Shown one piece after another: positions 15,438 through 35,193 of a stretch of 64,000 nucleotides of DNA. The stretch is taken from contig CAVOVL010000006.1 in NCBI GenBank assembly GCA_963699855.1, forward strand, positions 68,606 to 132,605. Direction: 5' to 3'. A program made the translations under genes and the position numbers. This DNA comes from an uncultured Alphaproteobacteria bacterium. Lineage in GTDB: Bacteria; Pseudomonadota; Alphaproteobacteria; Rhizobiales; Rhizobiaceae. The notes below the pieces were generated by a model. It saw only the letters and a program-made list of their open reading frames with translations. It did not search any database and was not told where the DNA came from. Position 1 is the stretch's first letter. Every line of letters begins with the position of its first letter.

Positions 15438-15573
15438 CGTAGTTCCCCCCGCAGTTTCTGCAAACTAGCACGCGCCGTGACGCGCGCAACCGCGGGCATT
15501 GCCGATTGACCGCGAGGCTGCACGGTCACTAAGCTTTGGCTGGGCGCACGCTGGCGCCGCGAGGCGCGAGGAA

Positions 15574-17188
15574 ATGGCGGCATTCGAAACGAAACTGGAT
15601 ACCCGCGGCGTGGAATTTGCCGCTAACCGCGATCACATGCTGGAATTGATCGCCCGGCTTCGCGCGATCGAACAACGTGCGGTCGAACAATCAGCCCGTG
15701 CCAAGCCGCGATTTGCCGAACGCGGCCAATTGCTGCCGCGCGAAAGGGTAGCGCTGCTGTCCGATCCCGGTTCGCCGTTTCTTGAACTGTCCACGCTTGC
15801 GGGCTGGGGCCTCGACACGCGGGACGAGGAGAAATCGGTTCCCGGGGCCGGGGTGATCTGCGGTATCGGTTTCGTCTCGGGAATCCGCTGCATGATCAGC
15901 GCCAGCGACAGCGGCATCGCGGCCGGCGCGCTGCAGCCCATGGGCCTCGACAAGCAGTTGCGCATCCAGGAGATCGCGTTGCAAAACCGCCTGCCTTACG
16001 TGCAGCTCGTGGAAAGCGCGGGCGCCAATCTGATGGAATACCGTGTCGAGGATTTCGTTCGCGGCGGCGAGATTTTCCGCAATCTCGCGCTGCTTTCCGC
16101 CGCCGGCCTCCCCGTAATCACGGTCACGCATGGCTCGTCGACCGCGGGCGGGGCGTACCAGACGGGCCTTTCCGACTACATCGTCATGGTGCGCGGGCGC
16201 ACGCGCGCATTCCTTGCCGGGCCGCCGCTGTTGAAGGCTGCAACCGGCGAAATCGCCACGGAGGAAGAACTCGGCGGCGCGCAGATGCATACGTCGATCT
16301 CGGGGCTAGGCGATTATCTTGCTGAGGACGACCGTCACGCGCTCGGCATCGCCCGGCGGATCGTCGCCAATCTGGGTTGGGAAGGACACAGGCGAGCCGG
16401 ATGTGCCGTTCGAGGAGCCGCGATACCCGGCAGAAGACCTGCTCGGCATCATGCCGGAAGACCACCGCCAGCCCGTCGACATGCGCGAGGTGATCGCGCG
16501 GCTCGTCGATGCCTCCTGTTCGACGAGATCGGCAGCGACTACGGCAGCGCTACGGTTTGCGGATTTGCCCGCATACGCGGCCGGTCAGTGGGCTTCATCA
16601 CCAACAACGGTCCGATCAGATTCGCCGGGCGCGAACAAGGCGACGCATTTCATCCAGCTTTGCTGCCAGTCAGGCACGCCGATCGTCTACCTCCACAACA
16701 CCACGGGCTACATGGTTGGCCGCACCCATGAGGAAGCCGGCATGATCAAGCACGGCTCCAAGATGCTGCAGGCGGTGGCGAGCGCCAACGTACCGCAAAT
16801 CGCGATCCATTGCGGCGCATCTTTCGGGGCCGGCAATTACGGCATGTGCGGGCGCGGCTTCAAACCCCGTTTCGCGTTCTCCTGGCCCAATGCGAAAACC
16901 GCCGTCATGGGCGCCGAACAGGCCGCCGGTACCATGGAGGTTGTGGCGCTGGCGGCGGCGCAGCGGCGCGGCGTTGAGCCGCGACGCGGCTGAACTGGCG
17001 GCGCAGCGCGACCGCATCACGACCTTGTTCGAGCGGCAGATGAGCGCCTTCCACACCAGCGCCCGGCTGCTCGACGATGGCATCATCGACCCGCGGGATA
17101 CGCGCAACGTGCTTGCCGAGGTCTGGCCATTTGCCGCGAGGCGGAGCAAAGGCCAGTGCGTCCGGTGCAGTTTTCCGTGGCGCGGCCA
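15574..17188 (+). pseudogene. acyl-CoA carboxylase carboxyltransferase (beta) subunit, methylcrotonyl-/propionyl-CoA carboxylase beta-like, at least 4 apparent frameshifts
   Basis: N-terminus MAAFETKLDTRGVEFAANRDHMLELIARL (ATG 15574). Conserved blocks alternate between the frames of ORFs 15499, 16319, 16890 and 17077, for example GTTLVCGFARIRGRSVGFITNNGPI, HFIQLCCQSGTPIVYLHNTTGYMVG, GAGNYGMCGR and [16 protein letters not shown]. Confidence 0.75.
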
Positions 17189-19154
17189 TGAGTGCAATGA
17201 AGACGCCGTTCCGCACGATCCTTGTCGCAAACCGGGGCGAGATCGCCTGCCGGATCATCCGCACCGCAAGGCGTCTCGGCTACCGGACCGTGGCCGTGCA
17301 CATGGGCGATGAATCGGCCGCCCTGCATGTGCGCATGGCTGACGCGGCCGTGGCCTTGACGGCGAGACGCTGTCGCAGATGCCTTTCTGAGTATCGATGC
17401 AATGCTCTGTGGCTGCGCAGGTTTCGGGAGCGGATGCCATCCATCCAGGCTACGGGTTCCTGTCTGAAAATGCCGATTTTGCGCAGGCCTGCGCCAGTGC
17501 CGGGCTTGTCTTCATCGGCCCGTCGGCAGGCTCGATCCGCCTGATGGGTGACAAGGGCGCAGCCAAGCAAGTCATGGCAGCCGCCGGCGTACCCTGCATC
17601 GCAGGTCATGACGGCGCGGATCAGTCGGACACGAGCGCTTGCGCAAGCGGCGGCGGCTATCGGCTATCCTGTGATGATCAAGGCCGCTATGGGCGGCGGC
17701 GGGCGCGGCATGCGGCTCGCCGAAAACCACGCCGTTTTCGTCGAACTGCTGCGGGCGGCGAAGGCCGAGGCGCGCACCGCCTTCGGCGATGACCGCATCA
17801 TCATCGAAAAAGCGATCCCCGATGCGCGCCACGTTGAAATCCAGGTGTTCGGCGACCGCCATGGCAACGCCATTCATCTGGGCGAACGCGATTGCTCGGT
17901 GCAGCGCCGCCACCAGAAGCTGATCGAGGAAGCGCCGTCGCCGGCCATGACGCCGCAATTGCGCGAGGTGATGGGCAAGGTTTCGTGCGACGCCGTGCGG
18001 GCAATCGGCTACGAGGGCGCGGGAACGCTGGAGTTCCTGCTCGGGCCCAACGGTGATTTCCATTTCATGGAAATGAATACGAGGTTGCAGGTGGAGCATC
18101 CGGTCACGGAGGCGATCACGGGACTCGACCTTGTCGAACTGCAATTAAAGGTCGCGGCGGGCGAACCGCTCGGCATCGCGCAATCCGATATCCGCATCGA
18201 CGGCCATGCGATCGAGGCAAGGCTCTGCGCCGAGGATCCGGCCGACGGTTTCCTGCCGCAGACCGGAAGGGTCGGCCTGTGGCGCATGCCGCACGGTTTG
18301 CGCGCCGACACGGCGATGGAGACTGGCGCCAGCGTTTCGCAGCACCATGATTCGATGATCGCCAAGCTGGTCAGCCATGGTCCCGACCGCGAAACCGCGC
18401 GCAGGCAACTCATCGCCGGACTGGAAAGGGCTGACGTTCTCGGCATACGCACCAACCGCGAATTTCTTGTAGCTGCGCTTTCCCACGGCACATTCGCGAC
18501 GGGCGAAGCGACGACCCGGTTTGTGGAAGCCAATCTCGATGCGCTGACCGCTCCCGCCGCGGACAGTACCGCTCCCTTCGTTGCTGCCGCGATCCTGCGC
18601 CTGCCGCTCTCCGGACTGCTGGCTGCGCCGGCATGCCGTTCGCCGCGCCGTTGAAGTTCCTGCTCGACGATAGGCCCGTGGAAGCGTCGGCGGCCTTTGT
18701 GGCCAAGGATATTGCTCAGGTGACCATCGAGGGTGATGCCGTGACCGTCGAGATCATTGCGATGGAAGGCCATGACATCCGCATGCGCATCGATGGCGTC
18801 GAGAGCGTCGCCACCCGCGTGTTGCAGAAGGGCGAGGGTGGATTTGCCTGGATGGGCCGCAGCCACATTCTTGTGGACAGGACGCTCGAACCTGCTGGTT
18901 CCGCGGTGGAAGGGCATGGCGACGGCGTCTTGCGCGCCAGGATGGCGGGACGGGTTGTCGCTGTCCGCGGCGCGCCTGGCCATCTCGTTGCGGCGGGTCA
19001 ATCGCTCGTCATTGTCGAGGCGATGAAATTGCAGCATGCCCACGCCCTGCCGGCTAGCGGAAGGGTGGCGCAAGTGCTGGTGCGCGAGGGCGACCAGGTC
19101 GCCTCAGGCCAGATTCTGCTGCGGCTGGAAACAGAAAAGGGCCCGACCGCATGA
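17188..19154 (+). pseudogene. acyl-CoA carboxylase biotin carboxylase + biotin carboxyl carrier (alpha) subunit, 3 apparent frameshifts
   Basis: N-terminus [32 protein letters not shown]. Pieces in ORFs 17077, 17397, 17548-18654 (ATP-grasp, EHPVTE) and 18633-19154 (biotinyl domain, VIVEAMKLQHA). The junction with the beta gene at about 17185 is approximate. Confidence 0.75.
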
Positions 19155-19567: not shown

Positions 19568-20979
19568 TCAGTTCATGAATGCATGTGATGGTCGGCAAGC
19601 ATGCCAGCCGGTGACCGATTGATAGGAATGGCCCGCGCGCAGCAGGAGTTCCTCATCGACGTGGCGGCCGACGAATTGCATGGCCAGCGGCATTCCGGCG
19701 CTGTCGATGCCCATCGGCAGCGTCAGCGTCGGGCTTCCGGAGAAGTCGAACGGCGCGGTGAAGCGCAAGATGCTGTTCAGTACCGTGGGGTCTTCGCCAT
19801 ATTCGCTCATTCGCTTGAGATCGGGCACCGGCATGGGCATCGCCGGCACGATCAGCATGTCGGCTTCCTCGAACATCGCCTTGAGCGCGCCGTTGAACTT
19901 CAAACGCTCCTGGAGGATTTCGGCGATTTCGACCCCTGTCATTGCGTGTCCCTGGTCGATCAGTTGCGCCAGGTCCGGACCATATTCCGACTTTCGTGAG
20001 GGGTATGTTTGAATATGCGCGGCGGCAGTCTCGACCGAGCACATGGGGATCCACATGCCGACCAGGCGTTCGTAATCCGGAAAGCGGACCTCGCGCACCT
20101 TGGCGCCAAGATCGACCAGCACGCGCTCGGCTTGCGACATGGCGGCCACGATCTGCGGATCGATGCCTTCATGCATGTAGCGCCTGTCGATGCCGATGGT
20201 CAGGCCGCGAATGCCCTTGCGGATCGACGCCAGGTAGTCGGGCACCGGATCGGCCAGACTGGTAGGGTCGTGAGGATCGATGCCCGCCATCACCGCCAGC
20301 ATGGCGGCCGCGTCGGCGGCGCTTCGCGTCATCGGACCGACGTGATCGAGCGAGTCCGCCAAGCGGAAAGATGCCATGCCTGCTGACGCGGCCCCAGGTC
20401 GGTTTCAGGCCGGTGAGGCCACAGGTGGCGGACGGAAACCGGATTGAGCCGCCGGTGTCGCTGCCGATGGAACCAAAGCACAGCCCTGCGCGAAGTCGCG
20501 ACGCCCGAGCCGGTGGAGGACGATCCGACCCAATACTCGGGATTCCAGGGGTTGCGTGGCGCCGGGTCTTCCGGATGGTGGCTGGTATAGGCGCCTTCAG
20601 TCATCTTCAGCTTGCCGAGCGTGACAGCGCCCGCAAGCTCCAGCCGGTCGACGATGGTGGCATTGTAGGTACGGCACGTAGTCCGGCGAGTATTTTCATG
20701 CCCGCCGTGGTCGGCGCGAAGGTCGTGCGGCAAAGGTCCTTGAGGCCGATCGGCACGCCGTGCAGCGGGCCGCGCCATATGCCCTTGGCCGATCTCCGCG
20801 TCGGCAATCCGTGCCTGCTCCATTGCCCTTTCCGGCAGCACCGCAAGGTATGATCGCAGCCGCCCGTCCAGCACCTCGATCCGCTCGAGAAGCGCCTTGG
20901 TAACGTCTTGCGAACTGAGCTGCCGGGTGCGGATTCGCTCGGAAACATCGACGAGATTGAGATAGTGGATTTCGCTCAT
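19568..20979 (-). pseudogene. amidase (amidase signature family, GatA-like), at least 3 apparent frameshifts
   Basis: The N-terminus MSEIHYLNLVDVSERIRTRQLSS... starts at ATG 20979. The signature region GPLHGVPIGLKDL...TTAG lies in ORF 20607-20948. The C-terminal half lies in ORF 19568-20377. Confidence 0.7.
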
Positions 20980-21162
20980 GCCGATCGCGTCCCGTTGGCT
21001 GGAGCATCGATTGGCTGCCATGACCGGGTCCTGGTCAAGCGCGTTCTGCTGAAAATCAGGACAGCGATGCAACTCCGCGATTGCCTGCGCCACATCGCTT
21101 GCTACAGTGCGGGTTCACAATTGAGGGGAGGGCAGAGCTTGGACTGGTTACGCAGCAGCTAC

Positions 21163-23215: not shown

Positions 23216-24961
23216 TCAGGCGGCGGGGGTAAGGCCAAGTTCGGTGATCATTGCTTCCTGCATCTTGAACTTCTGCGCCTTGCCGGTGGCGGTGAGCGGG
23301 AATTCGTCGACGATGCGCACGTGTCGGGGGATCTTGTAGTGGGCGATCTTGCCGCGGCACCACTCGCGCAATGCCTCGCCCGTGAGGCCGGAGCCCGGGC
23401 GGGCAATCACCCAGGCCGCGACTTCCTCACCCATTTTCGGGTCGGGCAGGCCGAAAACCTGAACTTGCGCGATGTCGGGATGGCTGGCGAGAAACTCCTC
23501 GACCTCGACGGGATAGACGTTTTCGCCGCCGCGGATCAGCATGTCCTTGCTGCGGCCGACGATCTTGCAATAGCCTTCGGCATCGATGGTGGCGAGATCG
23601 CCGGTATACATCCAGCCGTCGCGGATCGCCTCGGCCGTGCGCTCCGGATCGTTCCAGTAACCTTTCATCACCAGGTAGCCGCGCGTAACCAACTCGCCCT
23701 TCTGGCCGATGGGAAGCGTGTTCCCGTTCTCGTCGACAACGCGGCACTCGGCGTGCGGCTGGATGCGGCCGACGGTCGATACACGGCGCGATACATCATC
23801 GTCGGTGGATGACTGAAACGAGATCGGGCTCGTCTCGGTCATGCCATAGCCGATCGTTATTTCCCGGCAGTGCATCTCGTCGATCACGCGCCGCATCAGC
23901 GGTTCGGGGCAGGGCGAACCTGCCATGATTCCCGTGCGCAGCGACGACATATCGAAGGTGTTGAAGTCCGAGTGATCCAACATGGCGGCGAACATAGTCG
24001 GCACGCCATGCACGGCATTGCAGCGTTCCGCCTCGATCGCCGAAAGCGTTTCGCGCGGCTCGAAAGCTTCGCCCGGTATCACCATGGTGACGCCGTAGGA
24101 ACAGGCAGCGAGATTGCCCAGCACCATGCCGAAGCAATGGTAGAACGGCACGGGAATGCACAGCGCATCGCCGGGCCGCAGCTTCATGGCGCGCGCGGTC
24201 GAGATGGCGTTGTTGACGATATTCTTGTGCGTCAGCGTCGCGCCTTTCGGTGCGCCGGTGGTTCCTGACGTGAACTGGATGTTGATGGGATCGCCTGGGT
24301 TCAAGGAAGCGGAGATGGCGTCGAGGCGCGAACGCACCGCCGAGCGCCCCCGGCTCATGACCTCGTCGAAAGAGAAGCAGCCGGAACGCGGGTTCGGGCC
24401 AAGCTGGATGACCGCCTTCAAATGCGGCAGTCGTTTGCTTTGCAAATGACCCTGCGGGCAGTGCGCAAGCTCCGGGGCAATTTCCTCCACCATGGACAAG
24501 TAGTTCGAGTTCTTGAATTGCGGAGCGACGATCAGCGTCTTCACGCCTGCCTTGTTTAGCGCGTATTCAAGTTCGCTGGTGCGATAGGCCGGATTGATGT
24601 TGACCATGATCGCGCCGATGCGCGCAGTGGCGAACTGCGCCAGCAGCCATTCGGGGCGATTGGGCGACCAGATGCCGATCCGCTCGCCCTTGTAAACACC
24701 GATCGACAGCAGCCCCGCGGCCAGCCGGTCAACCAGCCGGGCAAACTCGGCGTAGCTCCAGCGATCGCCGGTCTGGCGGAACACCGCTGCCGTACGCTCG
24801 CCATGGCGGCGCACCACCTCGGCGAGGAAGGCGGGAATGGTGGCATCGAGCAGCGGACGTTCCGTGGATCCGGCGACGTGCGATATGCCGTTCATCGGGA
24901 CGATGCCCGGCCTTGCCGTAATCGTTGCTGCCATGGCCCGGGCCTCCCGTCCCGCACTCAC
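23216..24961 (-). CDS. AMP-dependent acyl-CoA synthetase/ligase
   Basis: Intact 581 aa. AMP-binding motif [18 protein letters not shown] and ...GYGMTETSP.... The start overlaps the upstream stop (ATGA). Confidence 0.85.
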
Positions 24962-27321
24962 ATCTTCCGCCAGTCACCTGCCTGTTCGAAGGCGCCGGCG
25001 GCGCGATAGATGGTGCTTTCCTCGTAGCGCCTGCCCACGAGTTGCATGCCGACCGGAAGGCCTTGCGAAAAGCCGCACGGCACATTCATGGCCGGATGGC
25101 CCGACACGTCGAACGGCGCCGTGTTGGCCAGCATCTCGAATGCGCGCTGGCACCACAATGCCAGCGAGCTGTTGGCCGGCGGCAGCGGCGTCGCCTTCAT
25201 CGGCGTCGTGGGCATCAGCAGCAGGTCGTAGGAGGAAAGCATCTTGTTGTACTCGTCGCGCAACTGCCGCGACAGGTTCTGCGCCTTTGCATAGTAGTGA
25301 CCGCGAGTGTGCTTGAGGTGGTACATGCCCACCAGCATGCTGATCTTGAGCGTGTCGGAAAGCTCGTCCGCGCGCGAGCGCCAGTGCGAATGATAGTCGA
25401 GCAGCGAGGTGGTGTAGAGGCCTTCCCAGCCGGTGCCCATGCCGTTGCCGAGCATCATCTGGTTGGTCAGGCCCTCCAGCGCTATCGGGGTCCAGATCGC
25501 CACCCCCTTGAGGTGCCATGGCACCGAAACCTCGTCGACGGGAGCGCCGAGCCGGCGGAAGAGTTCGGCTGCCGCGCGCACTTTTGCATCCACATCGGCT
25601 TCGGCGCCGACCTGTCCGAAGCCTTCCTTGACGACGCCGATACGAAGGCCCGAAACGCCGCGATTGACGGCGCTCGTATAGCGGTCGGTCTTCACGTCGT
25701 ATTGGCGCGGGTCCAGCCCGTCGGCGCCGGCTATCACTTCCAGCATCAGCGCGTTGTCGATGACGTTCTGCGTCATCGGGCCGGTGTGGTCGATGGTGGC
25801 CTCGATCGGCATGATGCCGGTATAGGGAACGAGGCCGTGCGTCGGCTTCATGCCATAGACGCCGCAAAAGGAAGCCGGCATGCGGATCGATCCGCCCTGG
25901 TCTCCGCCAATGGCCATGTCGACGAGGCCCGCGCCGACCAGCGCGCCGGAACCGGACGACGATCCACCGGCGGAATAGCCGTGCTTGTGCGGATTGTGGA
26001 CCGGTCCCGTCGCGTTGGTGTGGCTTCCGCCGGACAGGCAGAAATACTCGCAATGCGCCTTGCCGGCGATGATCGCACCGGCGTCGAGCAGGCGCGTCAC
26101 GATCGTCGCGTCAATGTCGGGCGTGTAGCCCTTCAAGGTCGCGGCGCCGTTCATCATCGGCACGCCGGCGAGGCAGACATTGTCCTTGAGCGCCACCGTG
26201 CGCCCGTGCAGGGGACCGCGCGGCGCACCCCTGATCTCGGTCTTCACGTACCAGGCGTTCATCGGGTTTTCCTCCGCCGTCGGGCGGTAGCCCGATGTGC
26301 GCGGATAGAGCACCGGCGGCAGGTAATCGGGCAGCGCATCGACGACATCGTAGGCGTCGAGGGTGCCTTGCATCACGTCAAGGAATTCCTGGACGCGGGC
26401 GTCCGACATGTGCATTCCAAGTTCTGACACCACATCCTTCATCTGGGCCAAGGTCGGGCGCTGGACCGTCATGTAGGATATCCTTTCCTGGAGCGATGCC
26501 TGGACGGGCAGGGGGGCGGAGCCGGCCCCGGCGCCTGCCGTCGATCTTGACTGTGCCGCGGGCGCGGCGAGCTTGGGAACCGTTGCTTTCGACGCGGGCT
26601 TTGCGCCGCTGCCGCCAAGGCCGGTGAACTCCTCGATCAGCGCCGGATCGGATGCTTCCGACCCCGATATCTCGCCGATGATCGCGCCCTTCTGGATCAG
26701 CAGCACGCGATCCGACAGGGCCGTGATGAAGTCGAGGCTCTGTTCCACCAGCACGATGGAAACACCCATGCGGCGGTTGAGGCCTTTGAGAAGGTCGATG
26801 ATCTCGTCGATAATGGAAGGCTGGATGCCTTCCGTGGGCTCGTCGAGAAGAATGAGATCCGGCTGCGAAATCAGGCAACGCGCCAGCGCAAGCAATTGCT
26901 GCTCGCCGCCGGAAAGCGCGCCTCCGTCCCGGTCGAGAAGCCGCTCGAGCCGGGGAAAATCGCGCAGCACCTGCTCGATCGCCTCGTCCTCGTCCAATTC
27001 ATGTGCCGCAACACCCATGCGCAGGTTGTCGCGTACCGTGAGGTTCGGGAAAATTCCGCGTCCTTGCGGGACGTAGCCGATGCCGAACTGCGCGCGCTCC
27101 GATGAGCGCATGCGCGTCAAGTCATTGCCGTCATAGCGCATGTCGCCACCGGTAACGGGAATAATGCCCATCACGGTCTTGAGCAGCGTGCTCTTGCCCA
27201 TGCCGTTATGGCCAAGGACGCCGAGGATTTCGCCTGCGTCGACGGAAAAGTCGACGCCGTGCAATACGGGCACGCGGCCATAGCCGGAACGCAATCCCTT
27301 GACCTCAAGCAGTGTGCTCAT
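24958..27321 (-). CDS. single 787-aa ORF fusing a LivF/UrtE-like ABC transporter ATP-binding domain (N-terminus, about 235 aa) through a low-complexity linker to a complete amidase-signature amidase (about 500 aa)
   Basis: N-terminus [15 protein letters not shown]...[11 protein letters not shown]...[15 protein letters not shown]. Linker [41 protein letters not shown]. Then [15 protein letters not shown]... with [11 protein letters not shown], the amidase Ser-cisSer-Lys region. No stop in this frame. Confidence 0.7.
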
Positions 27322-28064
27322 GCGCGGTGCCCCAGATAGACTTCGCGGGCGCGCTTGTCCGACGAGATGGCGTCCATCGTGTCCTCCATGAGGATGCGGC
27401 CCTCATGGAAAAGCGTCACCGTGCGCGAGATCATGCGAATGAACTGCATGTCGTGTTCCACCACGATGAGCGCCGCCGAATTGTTGATTTCGGAAATCAG
27501 TTCAGCCGTACGGGCGGTCTCTTCGTGGGTCATTCCGGCCGCCGGCTCGTCCAGCAGCACCAGCCAGGGTTCGGCCGCGATCACCATGCCCAGTTCCACC
27601 CATTGCCGCTGTCCGTGCGCTAGGCGTCCAACGGTCGAGCGGCGGATGTCGCCCAGCCGGAGGCGGTCGATCGTGTCGGATGTGAGCGAGCGGGCCTTCG
27701 CCTGTCCGTGCCAACGCCGGGCCGAAAGCCAGATGTTCTCCTCTGTCGTCAGCCCGTCGAATACGTTCGGCACCTGTGTCTTGATGCCGACGCCCATGCT
27801 GGCGACTTCGTGCGGTTCGGCGCCGGTGGTGGTGGTGCCGCGAATGCGGATTTCGCCTTCGCTTGGCACCAGCTGGCCGGTGAGGCATTTGAAGAAGGTC
27901 GACTTGCCCGCGCCGTTGGGGCCGATGAGGCAGCGCAGTTCCTTGTCGAACAGGGTGAAATCGACCTGGTCAACGGCCCGCACCCCGCCGAAATGCATGG
28001 AGAGGCCGCGCGTCTCGACAACGGCATCGCGCGTGCGGATCTTGCCTTCCACCGCCATGTTCAT
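27318..28064 (-). CDS. LivG/UrtD-like branched-chain-type ABC transporter ATP-binding protein
   Basis: MNMAVEGKIRTRDAVVETRGLSMHFGGVRAVD..GPNGAGKST. Start ATG 28064 overlaps the LivM stop. The track ORF begins earlier, at 28136. Confidence 0.8.
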   Translation of the reverse strand: MNMAVEGKIRTRDAVVETRGLSMHFGGVRAVDQVDFTLFDKELRCLIGPNGAGKSTFFKCLTGQLVPSEGEIRIRGTTTTGAEPHEVASMGVGIKTQVPNVFDGLTTEENIWLSARRWHGQAKARSLTSDTIDRLRLGDIRRSTVGRLAHGQRQWVELGMVIAAEPWLVLLDEPAAGMTHEETARTAELISEINNSAALIVVEHDMQFIRMISRTVTLFHEGRILMEDTMDAISSDKRAREVYLGHRA

Positions 28065-29105
28065 TTCACACCTTCCGGCTTGCGCACGGCCCGGCGGCGG
28101 CGGACCGGTCCGCGCCTGCGCTTGGCGTTTGCCCAATCGATCACGGTGGGCGCTATTCCCTTGGGGACCAGGAGCACGAAAACAATGAGGATGATGCCAA
28201 GCACCAGATTGTTGTTGAGCTGGCTTTGCGCGCCCAGTGACGATGTCAGGTAGAACAGCGCGAAGGTGGCGATCACCGGTCCGATCAGCGTTCCGCGCCC
28301 GCCGACGATGACCCAGATGATCGTCAGCGCCGCGTTATAGAGGCTGAATACATCGGGCGTTATGCGTCCCACGCCATTGCAGAACAGCACGCCGCCGATC
28401 GCGGCAATGCCGGCGCCTATGGTGAAGATGCCGAGCTTGTAAGCGCGCGTATCATAGCCCAGCAGTTCGGCCCGAAGTTCGTTCTCGCGGATCGAAACGC
28501 AGACCCTGCCGAAATGCGTCGTCACGAGCCAGCCGGCGAATACAAAGCACAAGATGAGCGCGGCCATCGCGACATAGAAAACGTGTTCCGGCGACAGCAG
28601 CGCCTTCGTATCCCACGGCAGGTTTATGGGCGGCGAGGTTATGCCGTTAAAGCCACCCAGCAACGATTTGCCGATCTTGAATTCCGGACCGGACGTGCGG
28701 CGCATCAGCGAGAAGAGAATCAGCGTTACGGTGAGTGTGATGACGCCGAGATAGACGTCGGAAACGCGGCCGTAGAAAATGAAATAGCCAAGCAGGGCGG
28801 CAAAGGCGCAGGCAACAGCCACCGCCAGGAGGATCGCCCAGGAGGTGCCGCCAAAATTGATGGCAGCGATCGTATAGGCATAGCCGCCAATGCCGAAAAA
28901 CGCGACCTGGCCGAAGCACAAGATGCCGCCGAATCCCCAGATCAACGCGAGGCTCAGCGCAAGCACGGCAAGGCCGATCACGGTGGTGAGGTTTATGATC
29001 GTGAAGAGCTGCAGCACATGCGGCGCTGCCAGCATGAAGACGATGCCAATCAGCCGCGAAAATCAGCGTCGCGCGCATCTCGCGAAGGGTTCCGGAACCG
29101 TTCAT
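28061..29105 (-). pseudogene. LivM/UrtC-like ABC transporter permease, probable frameshift near 29045
   Basis: The main body is intact in ORF 28061-29035. A likely N-terminus MNGSGTLREMRATLIF sits in a different frame (ORF 28647-29105) and overlaps the LivH stop. Confidence 0.65.
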
Positions 29106-29971
29106 AGTGATTTCCGGAAGAAGCGACCGGTAATGCCGGTGGGCATCAGGCGCAGGAGAATGATTGCCGTCACGAGCAGCGCAACTTCGCCGATCGTCGG
29201 ACCGGTAAGGAACGTCACGATGCCGTTGATGCCGCCAAGGAGGATCGAGCCTGCCGCGGTGCCGGCAAGTATCGAGGCGCCGCCCGAGATGACCGTGATG
29301 AAGGCCTTGGCGATATAGGTTGCGCCCATGGTGGGCAGTACGCCGGTGACCGGCGCCAGGAGGCCGCCGGCAAGGCCGCTAACTGCCGCGCCGAGGCCGA
29401 ACGTGATCATGTAGATGCGGCTGGTCGAGACGCCGAGCGAGGAAGCCATCTGCGCGTTCTGCATGGTGCCGCGCGCCAGGAGCCCCAGTTTCGTCAGCTT
29501 GAGCGTTGCGTAGACCGCAAGCAGGAGCAGCGCGGTCACGAAGATCAGAAACAGGTCGTAGCCCGAAATCGTGTAGCCGCCGATCGGGAGTGCCCCGATC
29601 GGCGGCGAGATCGTGGTGGTGGTTTGCGCGCCGAAGATCGACGTCACGATACCGATGAGAAGGAGGGAGAGCCCCCAGGTGGCCAACAGCGTGTCGACCA
29701 TGCGGCCATACAGCCAGCGGATCAGCAGCCTTTCGACGATGACACCGATGATTCCCACGACCAGCGGCGCGAGAATCAGCATGGCGATCCAGATGTTGAC
29801 CCCGTTGTTGGTCGCGACGACGACCGTATAGCCGCCGAGCATCAGGAACTCGCCATGCGCGAGGTTGATCACCCGCATCATGCCGAAGATGATCGCGAGC
29901 CCGAGGCTTATCAGCGCCAGGTTCGCGATGCCGTAGATCAGCTGCAGACCGATCGCGATGACCTGGTCCAA
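29102..29971 (-). CDS. LivH/UrtB-like ABC transporter permease
   Basis: Intact 289 aa, hydrophobic, LivH-like (MDQVIAIGLQLIYGIANLALISLGLAIIFG...). Confidence 0.8.
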   Translation of the reverse strand: MDQVIAIGLQLIYGIANLALISLGLAIIFGMMRVINLAHGEFLMLGGYTVVVATNNGVNIWIAMLILAPLVVGIIGVIVERLLIRWLYGRMVDTLLATWGLSLLLIGIVTSIFGAQTTTTISPPIGALPIGGYTISGYDLFLIFVTALLLLAVYATLKLTKLGLLARGTMQNAQMASSLGVSTSRIYMITFGLGAAVSGLAGGLLAPVTGVLPTMGATYIAKAFITVISGGASILAGTAAGSILLGGINGIVTFLTGPTIGEVALLVTAIILLRLMPTGITGRFFRKSL

Positions 29972-30008: not shown

Positions 30009-31257
30009 TTACTTGATGCCTGCCGCCTCGAGTCCGTTCTCGAAGAAGAAGACGGACTGGTTCGGATTGGCGACGAGGTCGCAGACGAGCTGGGTGTCCG
30101 AGGGCGGCTGCGCTTCGTAGGTCTCGACGATCTGGAAAACTTGGTCTTTCAGCTCGCCCAGAACGACGTTCTGGATGCAGTGATTGGTCTTCGGATCCAC
30201 GGTTATCACGCCCGACGGTCCATCGTAGCTCAGCGGGGTCCGTAGCGCTTCGGCGACCGCATTGCGCTCGATCGAACCGGCCTTCTTCACCGCCTCTGCC
30301 CACAGCATCGCGCCTTCATAGGAACGTGTCGAAAGCTCGTTCATGACGGGGCGCTTGTCGCCCAGCTTGGCCGTCAGCTTTTCGAGGAATGCCTTGTTAG
30401 CCGGACGGTCGACTGCCTCGAAATAGGAGTAGGCAGCAAGCAGGCCGTTGCCTTCCTCGGCGGAGATCAATGTCTGCTCGTTGCCGACGCCGAAGGTTGT
30501 CGAGGCGATCGGGATGCTCTTGTTCATGCCGGCCGCGGCATACTGCTTGTAGAACGACACGTGTGCGCCGCCTACCAGAGCCGAGATCACCATGTCGGGC
30601 TTTGCAGCCTGGATTTTCTGTGATGGTCGGTCCGAAGTTGGTGACGTCGAGCGGGAAGAATTCAACCGCAACCGTTTCGCCGCCATTGTCCTTGACGAAA
30701 CGCTGCATCCACTGTGCCGTGATCTGGCCGTAATTGTAGTCGGCTGCGACGATGTAGACCTTCTTGCCCCATTTGTTCATCGCATAGGGAACAACCTTGG
30801 CGACGGTCTGGGCGGGCGTGGAGCCGGTATTGAAGTTGTTGTAGTCGCACACGCCGCCTTCATACTGCGTATTGTAGAAATAGAGCGTGTTGTAGCGGGC
30901 CAGCGTCGGGCGGATCGCCTCGCGGCTGGCCGATGTGATGCCGCCATGCACCGTCGCGGCCTTTTCGCCGGCTGCCGCCTCGGTGGCGAACTGGGTATAG
31001 AGCTGGATGTTCGACTGTGCGTCGTACATCTTCAGCTCGACTTCGCTGCCGAGCAGGCCGCCCGCGGCGTTGATATCCTCGATTGCAAGCTTGGTCGCCT
31101 CGGCCATGGGCGTGCCGTAGATGTCGAGGCCGCCGGAAAGGTCGAGAATCGATGCGAAGATGATCTTGTCCGCGGCATGCGAGCGGCGGATGAGTGCGGG
31201 CATTGCTAGCGTGAAGGCGGTGGTGCCGACGAGGAAATTTCGACGCGAGATGGACAT
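30009..31257 (-). pseudogene. Liv-family (UrtA/FmdD/AmiC-like amide/urea-type) periplasmic substrate-binding protein with Tat signal, one apparent frameshift near 30620
   Basis: N-terminus MSISRRNFLVGTTAFTLAMPALIRRSHAADK in ORF 30397-31257. The C-terminal half lies in ORF 30009-30686. Confidence 0.7.
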
Positions 31258-31315: not shown

Positions 31316-32946
31316 TCAGTCCTCTTTGGCGGGCTTCGACTTGCCCGTTTTCCTTGCGGGGCGAGCCCCGTTTCCGCGCCGGTCCAGCTGGGCCGTCAGC
31401 CCGCGAACGCCGTCGCCGATATTCATTCCGACTTCCTCGCCAAGCCGCTGGACGGCAGGCAATTGCAGCGCCATTGACAACACGCCGTCCACCAACTGGT
31501 TGACCGTGCTTCCCTCGCCGCCGCCCTCGCCATTGGAGGAATGGCCGTTGAGGCCATTGATCTGGTTGATGCGGATGCTTTCGATCTTTTCCGCCGGCTT
31601 CATGATGCGCTCGACAACTTCTGGCAGCGCACGCAGGCGCGCCTCGTCCAGCTTCATCGACATCAATTCCGGTGTCTGCGCGTTTTCCGCCGATATGACA
31701 CGCGGCGCGGCCTTCGGCTTCGGCCAGCAGCCTGTCGCGGGCGGCATGGGCCCGCTCCAGCGTCGCCTTCGCTTCCGCCTCGGCCATTGAAATGAGCGTG
31801 CCGACCTCGGAGCGCACACGCGTGTCGTCGACTTCGGCCTGCTCGGCGGCGCGCACAAGGGCAAGCGCCTTGTCGCGCTCCGCTGCCGCCATTTCACGCG
31901 TGGTGCGGACCTGTTCCTCGGCTTCGACTTCCTTGACCTTGGCCCCGATCGCGGCGGCTTCCGCCTTCGCTTCCTCGACCTTCTTCGCGGCAAGCGTCAC
32001 GACATTTTGCGAACGGGCAAGAGCCGTCGATAGCTCGGCTGCGAGGGTCTGCCGGCGAAGTTCGAGATCCTTCTCAATTTCGGTGAGGCGCGTCTGGCGT
32101 TCCCGTGCAATGCGCGCGGTTTCGCGCCGCTTTTCCGATTCGGCCTGTTCCTCGGCGGTGTCCGCAACACTGCGCGAGCGGGCAATCTCGATCTCGCGCT
32201 GCTGGGCGATCATCGCCTCTTCCTCTTCGCGCGCGATGGTCAGCTTGCGCTTGGTCGCATCTAGCTGGCTTTGGCGTACCGAAACCTCGGCGTCGGCCTC
32301 GATGGCTGCGCGCTCCTTCTTGTTGACAGTAATGATCTCCGCGAGGCGGCGCATGCCGAGGGCGTTGAACGCGTTGTTTTCGTCGAGCGCGCTGAAGGGC
32401 GTCTGGTCGATGCGGGTGAGCGACACCGATTCCAGCATCAGCCCGTTCTGCGCGAGGTTATCCTTGAGGACTGCCGAGACTTCTCCCGCGTAACCCGCAC
32501 GATTGTCCTGCAGTTCGTCCATCGTGTAGCGCGCCGCGACCGACAGCATGGCATCGACCAGCTTTCCTTCGAGCGTTTCGGCGAGTTCGGCGGCACGGAA
32601 AGTCTTTCCGGCAAGCGCCTGCGCGGCGGTAGCGACACCTTGTACGGTCGCATGGACGCGCACGTAGAACTCCGCGCCGACATCGACACGCAGGCGGTCC
32701 TTGGTGATGATCGACTTGCGCGCCGAGCCGCTCGATTTCGAGCTTCGTCGTGCGCATGTTGACTTCAGACACCTTGTGCAGGAATGGCAGCGCAATGCAG
32801 CCTCCGTCGAGCACGACCTTTTGCCCACCCGCACCTGTCCGCACCACGCTGATCTCGCGCGTCGCCTTGCGATAGTATCGGCTGAGAAAGAGGATGATGA
32901 GGATTGCCGCGACAAGCAGGACTACGAGACTGACAAACCACGTCAT
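31316..32946 (-). pseudogene. flotillin / SPFH (band 7) family protein (YqiK-like), at least 2 apparent frameshifts
   Basis: N-terminal TM + SPFH start MTWFVSLVVLLVAAILIILFLSRYYRKATREISVVRTGAGGQKVV in ORF 32458-32946. A long coiled-coil region lies in ORF 31206-32915. The C-terminus (ARVISAENAQTPELMSMKLDEARLRALPEV...) lies in ORF 31316-31993. Confidence 0.7.
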
Positions 32947-33162: not shown

Positions 33163-33747
33163 CTAACGAAGCCCGTCCTTGCCTTCCGCAGCGTCGTGCG
33201 TCAGCCCGCCGACGCGGGCCAACGGACGGCCACTGTCAGTCACGGCGACGGCAACCATGATTTCCCCTGCGCGCGGGGCATCATTGAGGCGCACTTCAAT
33301 GCCGTCGAAATGGCTGCGCACATAGGCCGCGTCCTTGTGGCCAAGCGGAACGTCCAGCACCTGGCCAGGTCCGCCCATCTTCTTCGAGGATGGCACGAGC
33401 GCCGCGCCTTTTTCGACGGCCTTTCGCAGGGGTGCGCCGAGCTTTGGATGAAGGATCGCGGCTGCGTGTTCCAGTTCGCCGGCTTCCCCGACCATGGCGG
33501 CCTTGCCATAGCTTTGCGCCTGTGACGGCTCGATGCCCAGCGCCTCCACGCAGCGCTTGCCAAGCAGGCCGCCAAGTTCCTCGCCGATGTCGATCAGCGG
33601 CGTCAGGTCATCTTCGAAGCGCCCGGCAAACGGGTTGGCGATCACGGCGATTGCGACCGCCTTGCGCGTCGGATTTTCGAGAACTTGGCCTGCCTCGCGC
33701 CGCGTCTCCTCGACCCACACGGCCAGTTTGCGAATATCGGCGCTCAT
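33163..33747 (-). CDS. amino acid synthesis family protein (DUF1185 / PF06684), copy 2
   Basis: MSADIRKLAVWVEETRREAGQVLENPTRKAVAIAVIANPFAGRFEDD..., from the internal ATG 33747 of ORF 33163-34035. Paralogous to the upstream gene. Confidence 0.65.
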   Translation of the reverse strand: MSADIRKLAVWVEETRREAGQVLENPTRKAVAIAVIANPFAGRFEDDLTPLIDIGEELGGLLGKRCVEALGIEPSQAQSYGKAAMVGEAGELEHAAAILHPKLGAPLRKAVEKGAALVPSSKKMGGPGQVLDVPLGHKDAAYVRSHFDGIEVRLNDAPRAGEIMVAVAVTDSGRPLARVGGLTHDAAEGKDGLR

Positions 33748-34328
33748 CTCAATCCGTCCTCTCCGGCTATATCCTTCGCGGCAAGTCCTCCGGCGCGGTC
33801 GTGAATGCGTGGGCCTGTCGTCATGACCAGCACCAGCGCCATTTCGTCGGCGCGCGGCGAATCGTTCAGCCCGACTTCCATCGAGTCGAAATGGCTGCGC
33901 ACGTATGAAGCATTGATGTGCGTTACCGGTACGTCGAGCCGGGTGCCGACCGTTCCCACCTTCTTGGTGGAAGGAACGATCGCCTTTGCTCCACCCAGCA
34001 CTTCGCGCATCGCATAGCCTCCGGGCGCATGCCAAAGCGCTCCGTGTTCCAGTTCGCCCGCCGAACCGATGATCGCGCCCTTGCCATAGCCCTCCACGAC
34101 GGACGGATCGCCGCCCAGCAGCGCCACAAGCCGGCGCGCCATTTCGAGGCCGAGCGGCTTCAGGTCTTCCATGAAAGGCTGGATGTTTTCGACGTAACGG
34201 CCTGCGAATGGATTTCGGATCACCGCGATGATGGCGGCCCGGCGCAACGGCTTTTGCGCCCTCGGCCCGCCTTCGTGGTGGATTTCCTCCAGTGCGGTCG
34301 CGATCTTCCGGATCTCGACTTGCGACAT
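33744..34328 (-). CDS. amino acid synthesis family protein (DUF1185 / PF06684), copy 1
   Basis: MSQVEIRKIATALEEIHHEGGPRAQKPLRRAAIIAVIRNPFAGRYVENIQPF.... The stop overlaps the start of copy 2 (ATGA), suggesting translational coupling. Confidence 0.65.
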   Translation of the reverse strand: MSQVEIRKIATALEEIHHEGGPRAQKPLRRAAIIAVIRNPFAGRYVENIQPFMEDLKPLGLEMARRLVALLGGDPSVVEGYGKGAIIGSAGELEHGALWHAPGGYAMREVLGGAKAIVPSTKKVGTVGTRLDVPVTHINASYVRSHFDSMEVGLNDSPRADEMALVLVMTTGPRIHDRAGGLAAKDIAGEDGLR

Positions 34329-34341
34329 TGCTACTTCTCCC

Positions 34342-35193
34342 TCAACAAACACCGGCAAGGCAATGGGTGCGGCCTACGGCGGCAGCCCTGCCTTGCAGAA
34401 AAAGGGCCGCGGCGGCGATTTGGCCGCGCCCGACGAGTTCGCGCGACCTGACCGCGCCCGCGTTCAAGGCGGCGTCGCATTCGTCCGGCATCAGTGGTCC
34501 GACGCCGACCGTCACCAGGCGCCCGCCAAGATCGCTGTCCGGCTGAAGCCTGCTCGCAGGCTCGCGCGCGACAGCCGGGTGTCCCGGTATGTCCACGGCG
34601 TTGCCGATCACGGTCGCGGCAGCATCCGCCCTTGATGAAGTGCCCGCAAGCACCGTAACGGCATCGGCTATGCCAAGCGAGAAACTGCGTCCGACCCTGC
34701 CGCTTGTCGCGATGCCGCGGACAGGATCGGCCGCATTGATCTCGATGGCGCCCAGCGACACGTTGGCAAGGTCTGCAATCGCGATGCGGAACGACTGGCC
34801 GTCATCAAGATGCAAGGCGATGTCGCCGCCATTGTTGACGTAGGCGCGAACGAGCTTTGCCGAAGACACCATGGCTTCCAGGATTTCTTCGGCCACGGAC
34901 CCGGCAACTGCGGCCATGGGGGTAATGAAACCGGTGTCGCCATGCGGCAGCACCGCCTCGAACATGCGCTGAGCAATGCGCCCCCGCGGCCTCGCGCCAA
35001 CCGGGCTGCGCAGCAGCGGCAATTCCGCGACGAGTTCGTCCAGTACCGTGGCGAAACGCTGGCGCGCAGCTTCGAAAGCAATTGTGCGTTCGCCATCTGC
35101 GCCGATGATAAGGTCTATCGGTCCGTGCTGCAGATGCAACCGCTCGGCCCCTGGTGTGCGTCCTGGTAAAATCGCCGAGACAGCGCCGGTCAT
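34342..35193 (-). CDS. UPF0280 family protein (conserved partner of DUF1185 genes)
   Basis: Intact 283 aa ORF, MTGAVSAILPGRTPGAERLHLQHGPIDLIIGADGE.... The family assignment rests on recalled similarity and is moderately confident. Confidence 0.5.
   Translation of the reverse strand: MTGAVSAILPGRTPGAERLHLQHGPIDLIIGADGERTIAFEAARQRFATVLDELVAELPLLRSPVGARPRGRIAQRMFEAVLPHGDTGFITPMAAVAGSVAEEILEAMVSSAKLVRAYVNNGGDIALHLDDGQSFRIAIADLANVSLGAIEINAADPVRGIATSGRVGRSFSLGIADAVTVLAGTSSRADAAATVIGNAVDIPGHPAVAREPASRLQPDSDLGGRLVTVGVGPLMPDECDAALNAGAVRSRELVGRGQIAAAALFLQGRAAAVGRTHCLAGVC

Follow-up and report, generated by a model that had tools for sequence, protein, structure and literature searches.

A UrtE-like transporter ATPase fused to a complete amidase in a conserved flotillin and acyl-CoA ligase operon

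Is a reading frame that joins the ATPase of an ABC importer to a whole amidase a genuine gene, or two neighboring genes run together by an error, and what could its product do? The question arises from a 64,000-nucleotide stretch of DNA (the window), in which a sequence-only reading had pointed to a 787-aa ORF combining a full ATPase with a full amidase. That ORF was borne out. It runs uninterrupted from ATG to TGA over 787 codons at 24958-27321, and it lies on the minus strand, which had not been stated. An ORF of identical 787-aa length, with no indel in the gene, is found at loci L161 and L162 (independent short-read assemblies, 94% nucleotide identity). We consider it probable that the gene is a genuine, selectively maintained fusion in a seven-gene operon, whose tethered amidase acts on an imported amide, with CoA trapping to follow. 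The features discussed below are listed in the order of transcription, with the basis of each assignment in brackets.

31316-32946, minus strand: flotillin, first gene of the operon, with N-terminal TM helix, SPFH/Band_7 and Flot (Pfam, orthologues)
30009-31257, minus strand: periplasmic SBP of the urea/short-chain-amide (Peripla_BP_5/6) type (orthologue models, PDB)
29102-29971, minus strand: UrtB/LivH-like permease (NCBIfam; BPD_transp_2 in L161 and L162 by Pfam)
28061-29105, minus strand: UrtC/LivM-like permease, carrying a single-nt insertion (29051) in the window (NCBIfam, relatives)
27318-28064, minus strand: UrtD/LivG-like ATPase, the first NBD (TIGR03411, 239 bits, cut-off 304; 248 aa in L161 and L162)
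24958-27321, minus strand: fused gene, UrtE/LivF-type NBD plus linker plus amidase, 787 aa (Pfam, NCBIfam, relatives)
26647-27321, minus strand: NBD of the fused gene, residues 1-225 (Walker A G37-S44, Q86, LSGGEQ 136-141, Walker B 158-161, VEQ 192-194)
26473-26646, minus strand: linker, residues 226-283, low-complexity and predicted to be disordered (composition, pLDDT, variability)
26481-26489, minus strand: Shine-Dalgarno-like AGGAAAGGA, last base 8 nt upstream of the internal ATG (SD-like core)
26470-26472, minus strand: M284 (MTVQRPTL), ancestral amidase start codon and candidate internal initiation site (alignment)
24958-26472, minus strand: amidase-signature domain, residues 284-787, of the RhAmidase/PRK07235 type (NF005565, 3A1K)
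23216-24934, minus strand: acyl-CoA ligase (AMP-binding, PRK12583 family), last gene of the operon (profile matches, relatives)

Two full-length domains and a variable linker

Both domains are full length, since the TIGR03410 and NF005565 models are covered nearly end to end. In the N-terminal part, ABC_tran (PF00005) matches residues 20-163 at 117.5 bits against a cut-off of 25, and the UrtE model TIGR03410 (230 positions) matches residues 5-225 at 262.4 bits, short of its equivalog cut-off of 285.8 bits. By these profile matches the NBD is UrtE-like, and we do not file it as a urea transporter subunit. The Walker A, signature and Walker B motifs recognized from the letters alone are all present. 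They stand in canonical order (Walker A G37-H-N-G-M-G-K43-S44; Q86; L136-S-G-G-E-Q141; Walker B L158-L-D160-E161), and their residues are invariant in two homologue alignments. The H-loop His is absent; the position is occupied by V192-E193-Q194, invariant in all fused homologues. Gln in place of this His is normal in the LivF/UrtE subfamily and is therefore no argument against ATPase activity.

In the C-terminal part, Amidase (PF01425) matches residues 359-771 of the fused protein at 338 bits. The PRK07235 model (NF005565) aligns residues 284-786 with its positions 1-505 of 506 at 812.4 bits (cut-off 545), a match that includes the N-terminal helical domain. The amidase signature GGSS[GS]GS is present as G452-G-S454-S-S-G-S458. 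In an alignment to 3A1K (E = 5.5e-145), K379, the cis-Ser S454 and the nucleophile S478 correspond to K96, S171 and S195, the Lys96/cisSer171/Ser195 catalytic triad of RhAmidase (PMC11732141). Judged by this match and these residues, the amidase domain is complete and predicted to be catalytically competent. Four other long PRK07235-type proteins (L023, P0151, P0243 and P0270) contain no ABC domain, and P0151 alone among them has an extra domain, which is Myb/SANT-like.

The stretch between the two domains, previously put at about 50 Ala/Gly/Pro/Ser-rich residues, measures 58 (13 Ala, 7 Gly, 7 Ser and 6 Pro). Whether it is conserved among relatives had also been raised, and it proved not to be: linker lengths range from 36 to 105 aa among 66 fused genes, with no conservation of sequence. 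Estimates of dN/dS are 0.017 for the NBD, 0.041 for the amidase and 0.78 for the linker; on these ratios both domains are under strong purifying selection and the linker sequence is nearly neutral. The reading frame through the linker is nonetheless kept open, with in-frame stops in 0/63 linkers as compared to 39/63 and 25/63 for the other two frames. Consensus scans for promoters and terminators in or near the linker found sites no more numerous than in shuffled sequence. A structure prediction of the whole fusion (AF2, 81-sequence alignment) gave a mean pLDDT of 55 and a pTM of 0.39. Its pLDDT is about 80-90 over the NBD and 21-36 in the linker; confidence is confined to the NBD, and neither the amidase half nor the position of one domain relative to the other is usable.

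Distribution of the fusion and its operon

Orthologous fused proteins, suggested earlier as a matter for database searches, are numerous. Searches in three clades returned at least 360 protein clusters (90% identity), at least 120 in each search, and among the matches listed all are two-domain proteins of 780-850 aa. Isolates that carry the fusion include members of Seohaeicola, Lacimonas, Lutimaribacter, Ruegeria, Phaeobacter, Sneathiella and Albibacillus, and the fetched loci hold 66 unique fused genes from Alpha-, Beta- and Gammaproteobacteria. Fused forms group together in neighbor-joining trees of the NBD and of the amidase alike, which suggests a single old fusion event. The fusion persists even where its flanking domains share no more than about 50-60% identity, and no case of a split back into separate genes was seen within the fused operon type. 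The database label of the fused proteins is plain “amidase”, which hides the transporter half.

The operon comprises seven genes: flotillin, SBP, two permeases, UrtD-like ATPase, UrtE-like ATPase::amidase and acyl-CoA ligase. The earlier description of a urtABCD-like operon holds for the transporter genes and is to be extended by a flotillin gene upstream and an acyl-CoA ligase gene downstream. Of the start/stop overlaps, the one at the fused gene is real, the stop of the UrtD/LivG-like ATPase overlapping its start by 4 nt (ATGA), but the fused gene does not end the operon, as the ligase gene starts 23 nt past its stop with a GGGAGG SD of its own. No further UrtE gene is found in the operon. 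Transporter and enzyme are linked covalently within a single ORF, and this link is kept in 66/66 operons of the fused type. The conserved operon encodes no amidase besides the fused one, and divergent fused loci share no neighbor beyond the seven genes (e.g. a regulator or NfeD). Neighboring regulators gave no clue to the substrate.

Each of the five transporter components falls short of its curated cut-off for urea transporters. The UrtB/LivH-like permease reaches 243.9 bits with TIGR03622 (cut-off 374) and 212.9 bits with TIGR03409 (cut-off 250). An intact SBP orthologue reaches 323 bits with the archaeal-type urea SBP model TIGR03669 (cut-off 494.8), and the nearest PDB entries to the SBP are 8TG1, the urea-binding 7S6E, 7S6F and 8HIC, and AmiC 1PEA. 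The flotillin is anchored by an N-terminal hydrophobic helix followed by RYYRK; its L001 orthologue matches Band_7 at 71.5 bits and Flot at 117.7 bits (Pfam), and the intact orthologue in L161 and L162 has 542 aa. Compared with L161 and L162, the window carries single-base insertions in the flotillin gene (32719 and 31701), in the SBP gene, which is broken at 30621, and in the UrtC gene. Should these insertions be genuine, this strain has an inactive system. Single-base insertions also break a second amidase gene and a carboxyltransferase gene in the window. Carboxylase genes near 15.5-18.7 kb might have pointed to a branched-chain substrate (a leucine/isovalerate link), an idea we dropped, as they are not conserved beside the operon in other fused loci.

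The unfused state of the pair, with a urtE-like gene and an amidase gene side by side but apart, occurs in Rhizobium rhizogenes, Bradyrhizobium sp. SSBR45G, Roseicella frigidaeris, Pseudomonas morbosilactucae and others, in which a transporter of the same family is followed directly by an amidase of the same subfamily (55-70% identity). Here a stop codon is followed by a spacer or overlap and the amidase has its own start. A stop after the ATPase and a separate amidase start (MTVQRPTL in the window), which the sequence-only reading held would speak against a fusion, are seen in more distant relatives (e.g. Rhizobium, Bradyrhizobium, Pseudomonas and Roseicella), but in a different operon type that has neither flotillin nor ligase. 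An acyl-CoA ligase gene lies directly downstream in 54/55 testable fused loci versus 0/38 unfused ones, and a flotillin gene adjoins the SBP gene in 39/39 testable fused loci versus 0/26. Across the testable loci, the fusion co-occurs strictly with the flotillin/ligase operon type.

A candidate internal amidase start and competing explanations

M284 aligns with position 1 of the PRK07235 model and with the starts of separate amidase genes. An ATG/Met is found at this point in 66/66 unique fused genes and an SD-like core at -16 to -5 in 51/66 (77%), as compared to a background of 10.7% at other internal ATGs and 7% in linker bodies, all counts taking genes singly, without correction for shared ancestry. 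The strict motif is missing from about 15/66 fused genes. In the window, AGGAAAGGA contains a rare AGG Arg codon. The motif is coded via different amino acids in different clades (ER, GG or VT), which suggests selection at the nucleotide level. Since both the amidase ATG and the SD-like motif are retained inside the ORF, the fused gene may yield additional free amidase; such a conserved internal start suggests one gene with two products at different locations.

The simplest objection to the fusion is a sequencing or assembly artefact, in which a single-base indel removed the UrtE stop and joined two genes. The sequence-only reading had raised this possibility, and the insertions that break the flotillin, SBP, UrtC, second amidase and carboxyltransferase genes of the window speak for it, as do the more distant relatives with separate genes. 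The window's neighboring genes do carry insertions, but the fused gene itself shows no indel against its 94%-identity relative, with the same 787-aa ORF in the independent L161 and L162 assemblies; hundreds of fused homologues from many sources are known, and unfused relatives have spacers of 20-80 nt, which the fused linker exceeds by about 150 nt. Taken together, we regard an artefact as almost certainly the wrong explanation. A subtler reading accepts the ORF and treats it as tolerated read-through, the amidase being made mainly from the internal SD and ATG, the products remaining effectively separate and the tether conferring no advantage. The universal internal ATG, the SD-like motif in 77% of genes, the nearly neutral linker and the fact that unfused relatives manage with separate genes are all in line with such a scheme. 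It does not readily account for a frame that stays open in 63/63 independent linkers despite changes in length while the other frames gain stops, for the persistence of the fusion over the divergence of its flanking domains, or for its strict co-occurrence with one operon type, where no reversion is seen. We judge tolerated read-through to be unlikely, while still worth keeping in mind.

The SD-like motif could alternatively be a translational pause element or a relic, giving the NBD time to fold or dock ahead of amidase synthesis. The same enrichment would fit, and published work has suggested that ribosomes pause at SD-like sequences inside genes, although this is disputed; a pause element would not, however, need a strictly conserved ATG 5-10 nt downstream, as found in 66/66 genes, and we hold this reading to be quite improbable. 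Less probable again is that the amidase domain serves mainly as a C-terminal regulatory or sensor module gating transport by the cytoplasmic level of amide or product. Extra domains in the same C-terminal position are known to regulate transport on importer NBDs such as MalK, MetN and ModC. Against this stand the triad and whole amidase domain, conserved under strong purifying selection, and the long disordered linker, which would make for poor allosteric coupling. In addition, the conserved operon has no other amidase, so the catalysis on which the co-conserved ligase depends must come from the fused domain.

A proposed route from import to CoA trapping

The system probably serves to import a small amide, hydrolyze it at once and trap the product with CoA. 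We infer a small neutral amide as the substrate class, which a binding-protein-dependent importer of the Urt/Fmd kind would pump in. At the cytoplasmic mouth of the transporter, where its disordered tether of 36-105 residues would keep it, the amidase would meet the incoming amide and hydrolyze it to ammonium and carboxylate, and the acyl-CoA ligase would convert the carboxylate to its CoA thioester. As small uncharged amides are able to escape again through the membrane, converting them at once would retain the substrate in the cell and spare ATP from being wasted. Free amidase from the internal start could form a dimer with the tethered one, given that the nearest characterized homologue is dimeric and that a transporter contains a single UrtE. 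All the evidence fits the earlier idea of an ATPase joined covalently to the enzyme acting on the amide brought in: the fusion is conserved in frame and under purifying selection in hundreds of relatives, with channelling as its putative consequence.

The UrtABCDE urea transporter and the FmdDEF short-chain amide/urea transporter are ABC importers of the HAAT family. The present system resembles both in gene order (SBP, two permeases, two ATPases) and in an SBP from the urea/amide-binding Peripla_BP_5/6 group, related to AmiC; the best NCBIfam matches of all five components are Urt models. It differs in that the second ATPase is extended by a 560-aa linker-plus-amidase and in the added flotillin and acyl-CoA ligase. 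Importer ATPases with small C-terminal regulatory or ligand-binding domains are known in MalK, MetN, ModC and OpuAA, which likewise carry their extra domain on the C-terminus of the NBD, whereas here a catabolic enzyme of 500 aa is attached in full through a long disordered tether. A whole catabolic enzyme fixed to an importer motor subunit is unusual. RhAmidase of Rhodococcus sp. N-771 (3A1K, 3A1I) is matched over its full length, including the N-terminal helical domain special to the subfamily; it is a free-standing soluble dimer of 521-aa chains linked to nitrile metabolism, while its counterpart here forms the C-terminal half of a transporter subunit. Our literature search found no description of an ATPase-amidase fusion or of this operon, nor any experimental study of them; one apparent match to “UrtE” was an author surname.

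The constant presence of flotillin invites a bolder proposal. SPFH/flotillin proteins form membrane cages, as described for the flotillin complex and HflK/C-FtsH (PMC11260169, PMC11348225). The operon flotillin shares with them SPFH, Flot and an N-terminal anchor, its bulk being predicted to lie in the cytoplasm, on the side of the NBD and amidase; the difference is that its link to the importer-enzyme fusion is one of genomic association. The literature yielded no flotillin that shares an operon with an ABC importer-enzyme fusion or scaffolds one. One may picture a membrane-attached catabolic compartment, in which a flotillin dome covers the importer on its cytoplasmic face, tethered and free amidase dimerize and the ligase completes the trapping. 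We put this forward as a rather unlikely arrangement of considerable reach: if true, a permeant amide would be imported, hydrolyzed and CoA-activated inside a flotillin-bounded space, a proteobacterial flotillin would have its first defined client and function, and the fusion would be the first ABC importer with a built-in catabolic enzyme and two products from one gene.

The all-or-none link to flotillin and acyl-CoA ligase defines a compact seven-gene module, which could supply a concrete partner for bacterial flotillins, a group with poorly defined clients. The fusion is also well suited to asking whether an enzyme anchored to a transporter helps to capture a leaky substrate. As the module is found in cultivable marine Ruegeria, Phaeobacter, Seohaeicola and Sneathiella, these ideas are directly testable.

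The fused protein and its operon

The reading frame comprises 787 codons and runs uninterrupted from ATG to TGA. In Pfam, ABC_tran spans residues 20-163 and Amidase spans residues 359-771, and the NCBIfam UrtE model TIGR03410 (230 positions) covers residues 5-225. Positions 1-505 of the 506 in the amidase subfamily model PRK07235 (NF005565) match residues 284-786 with a score of 812 bits (cut-off 545). The ATPase motifs (Walker A, G37-S44; Q86; LSGGEQ, 136-141; Walker B, 158-161) are accompanied by an amidase triad of K379, S454 and S478; in the alignment with the Rhodococcus N-771 amidase 3A1K (E = 5.5e-145), these residues correspond to K96, S171 and S195. Both halves are complete, and the 58 residues between them form an Ala/Gly/Ser/Pro-rich stretch. 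The sequence-only reading of this frame as two full domains joined by such a linker was thus confirmed by translation, Pfam and NCBIfam; the strand, which it left unstated, is minus. Structure prediction is confident for the ATPase domain only, with linker pLDDT of 21-36, a poorly modelled amidase and a pTM of 0.39.

The fused gene had also been taken for the last of its operon, which is incorrect, as an acyl-CoA ligase gene comes after it. The genes, in 5' to 3' order, are as follows.

31316-32946 (-), flotillin gene
30009-31257 (-), binding-protein gene
29102-29971 (-), permease gene 1
28061-29105 (-), permease gene 2 (UrtC-like)
27318-28064 (-), UrtD-like ATPase gene
24958-27321 (-), fused gene, UrtE-like ATPase::amidase
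23216-24934 (-), acyl-CoA ligase gene

Among loci with enough flanking DNA, and with genes assigned by domain, the ligase (AMP-binding, PRK12583 family) lies directly 3' in 54/55 fused loci as compared to 0/38 separate-gene loci. Likewise, flotillin lies immediately 5' of the binding-protein gene in 39/39 fused and 0/26 separate-gene loci. No other neighbor is conserved across divergent fused loci. The fused state is tied to one operon type, and the association of flotillin and ligase defines the unit as the seven genes listed. No promoter or terminator signals above chance were found inside the operon. At the sole fused locus failing the downstream-ligase count (L133:9483-10934), an AMP-binding ORF lies ~200 nt 3' of the fused gene; it shares 41% identity with the window's ligase and seems to be shorter.

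None of the five transporter components reaches its curated urea-transporter cut-off, and the solved structures closest to the binding protein are those of an unassigned receptor (8TG1), of urea-binding proteins and of the acetamide sensor AmiC. Together these point to a substrate that is probably a small amide other than urea.

Authenticity, breadth and history of the fusion

The sequence-only reading offered, as an alternative, that an indel had deleted the LivF stop codon in a frameshift-rich window. The window was compared with its close relative L162, a contig of 12.3 kb assembled independently from short reads and 94% identical in nucleotide sequence, and eight single-base indels were found over 12.3 kb. 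The four insertions that break genes do not lie in obvious homopolymers.

32719 and 31701, single-base insertions, flotillin gene broken
30621, single-base insertion, binding-protein gene broken
29051, single-base insertion, UrtC-like permease gene broken
35081-35084, 34331 and 33132, further single-base indels

The frameshifts are therefore present as claimed. The fused gene and its two neighbors, the ATPase gene on its 5' side and the ligase gene on its 3' side, are free of them, and L162 encodes the same 787-aa fused protein with 10 substitutions. The indel-free gene, the database clusters of fused homologues and 66 distinct fused genes exclude an artefactual origin. The insertions could be assembly errors or true pseudogenization of the transporter in the source strain; if real, they leave the system defective in this strain and the fused gene intact.

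Orthologous fused proteins, for which a search had been suggested, were recovered by database search with three queries, namely the window protein and two divergent fused proteins. Every query gave at least 120 clusters at 90% identity; among the matches listed, all carry both Pfam domains in 780-850 aa. Isolates among these matches include Seohaeicola, Lacimonas, Lutimaribacter, Phycobacter, Ruegeria, Phaeobacter, Nioella, Albibacillus and Sneathiella, and the proteins, where named, are labelled merely "amidase". The 66 fused genes, recovered from loci in genome and metagenome collections, belong to Rhodobacterales, Aquibium, Sneathiellales, unclassified soil Alphaproteobacteria, a betaproteobacterial MAG and an Acidiferrobacteraceae MAG. 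The fusion is real and conserved; the literature yielded no published description of the protein or its operon and no experimental characterization. The part families are all known, and what is new is the arrangement: an importer ATPase bearing a catabolic enzyme, a strict association with flotillin and ligase, and a probable second product begun at an internal ATG. Interest in the module rises if the flotillin link and dual products prove functional.

Separate genes in relatives, which the sequence-only reading named as a result that would count against the fusion, do occur outside the fused group; the close relative L162 keeps the fusion. The separate genes are adjacent, with spacers of 20-80 nt or short overlaps, in Rhizobium rhizogenes, Rhizobium sp. 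SL86, Bradyrhizobium sp. SSBR45G, Roseicella, Pseudomonas morbosilactucae, one Solirubrobacterales genome and many MAGs. In neighbor-joining trees, which are plain distance trees lacking support values, the fused genes make up one group by ATPase domain and nearly one group by amidase domain, where the stand-alone amidase of locus L012 is nested within. This grouping by both domains suggests that the fusion arose once, long ago. The L012 gene (L012:9950-11533) is of PRK07235 type, 75% identical to the window's amidase domain, and its locus has none of the transporter, flotillin and ligase genes. The amidase half may have been split off secondarily there, or duplicated. A separate, unrelated fusion involving the same enzyme family is the database protein P0151 (674 aa), a PRK07235-like amidase (41% identity) whose N-terminus carries a Myb/SANT-like DNA-binding domain.

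Linker, probable internal start and proposed function

Comparison of the window with L162 gives a dN/dS of 0.017 in the ATPase domain and 0.041 in the amidase domain; the linker's value, 0.78, comes from small counts (2 synonymous and 4 non-synonymous changes). Family-wide, the linker (19% Ala, 16% Pro, 11% Ser, 9% Gly) spans 36-105 residues, median 60, with no conserved sequence, so neither its length nor its sequence is conserved in relatives, a point the sequence-only reading had left to be checked. In-frame stops occur in 0/63 distinct linkers as compared to 39/63 and 25/63 in the other two frames, and every length change keeps the frame. By these patterns, the tether's amino-acid sequence is free to vary and tethering as such is maintained. 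A rival reading is that read-through is neutral and the products are functionally separate.

An ATG at the start position of separate amidase genes is kept in 66/66 fused genes. A Shine-Dalgarno-like core lies 5-16 nt 5' of it in 51/66 (77%), against 10.7% of these genes' other in-frame ATGs and 7% of 12-nt linker windows elsewhere, statistics uncorrected for shared ancestry. Most of the remaining genes have GGTGA(C) there, also complementary to the 16S rRNA 3' end. The residues through which the motif is encoded vary by clade: Glu-Arg, the Arg being the rare codon AGG (3/45 Arg codons in the window's fused ORF), Gly-Gly or Val-Thr. In the window it reads as follows.

26481-26489, Shine-Dalgarno-like motif AGGAAAGGA in the fused gene

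We infer that free amidase is probably made besides the fusion, the rival being that the motif is a pause site. The homologous Rhodococcus N-771 amidase is a dimer and there is one UrtE-type subunit per transporter; by analogy, we conjecture that a free copy could partner the tethered one.

Under the proposed mechanism, the periplasmic binding protein would capture the amide for pumping inward, the tethered amidase would hydrolyze it at once, and the ligase would turn the resulting acid into a CoA ester. Since small neutral amides pass readily through membranes, their rapid conversion at the pump exit would prevent back-leak and wasted ATP. The amidase domain might alternatively have a regulatory role. 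In the flotillin, a hydrophobic N-terminal helix precedes RYYRK, an arrangement that should place most of the protein in the cytoplasm, where the ATPases also lie. Membrane-attached cages are built by eukaryotic flotillins and by HflK/C (PMC11260169, PMC11348225), and this suggests that the operon flotillin, whose link to the transporter is a genomic one, encloses or clusters other components.

Other genes near the operon

Further genes were seen on either side of the operon.

19568-21093 (-), second amidase-signature gene, which a frameshift divides into overlapping ORFs of 254 and 269 aa
20908-22122 (+), acetamidase/formamidase-family (FmdA_AmdA) gene and short-chain dehydrogenase, just 3' of the operon on the opposite strand
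15499-16993 (+) and 17548-18654 (+), methylcrotonyl-CoA/acyl-CoA carboxylase-like genes
33163-34358 (-) and 34342-35193 (-), two tandem AA_synth (PF06684) genes and an AbpE-like gene, 5' of the flotillin gene

The second amidase best matches PRK06169 and AtzE-like amidases and is unrelated to the fused amidase subfamily. The FmdA_AmdA gene, a third amide-hydrolase type within 8 kb, has an orthologue at L001:15944-17014 (-), and both it and the dehydrogenase are conserved within a Rhodobacterales subgroup only (6 loci). The carboxylase-like genes, assigned by eye as a frameshift-split carboxyltransferase (ORFs of 410 and 224 aa) and a biotin carboxylase, are not conserved beside the operon in other fused loci. 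The AA_synth/AbpE-like region recurs in the close relatives (L161:518-1683, L162:133-2162), and the overlap of the AA_synth ORFs in the window is probably due to the indels relative to L162.
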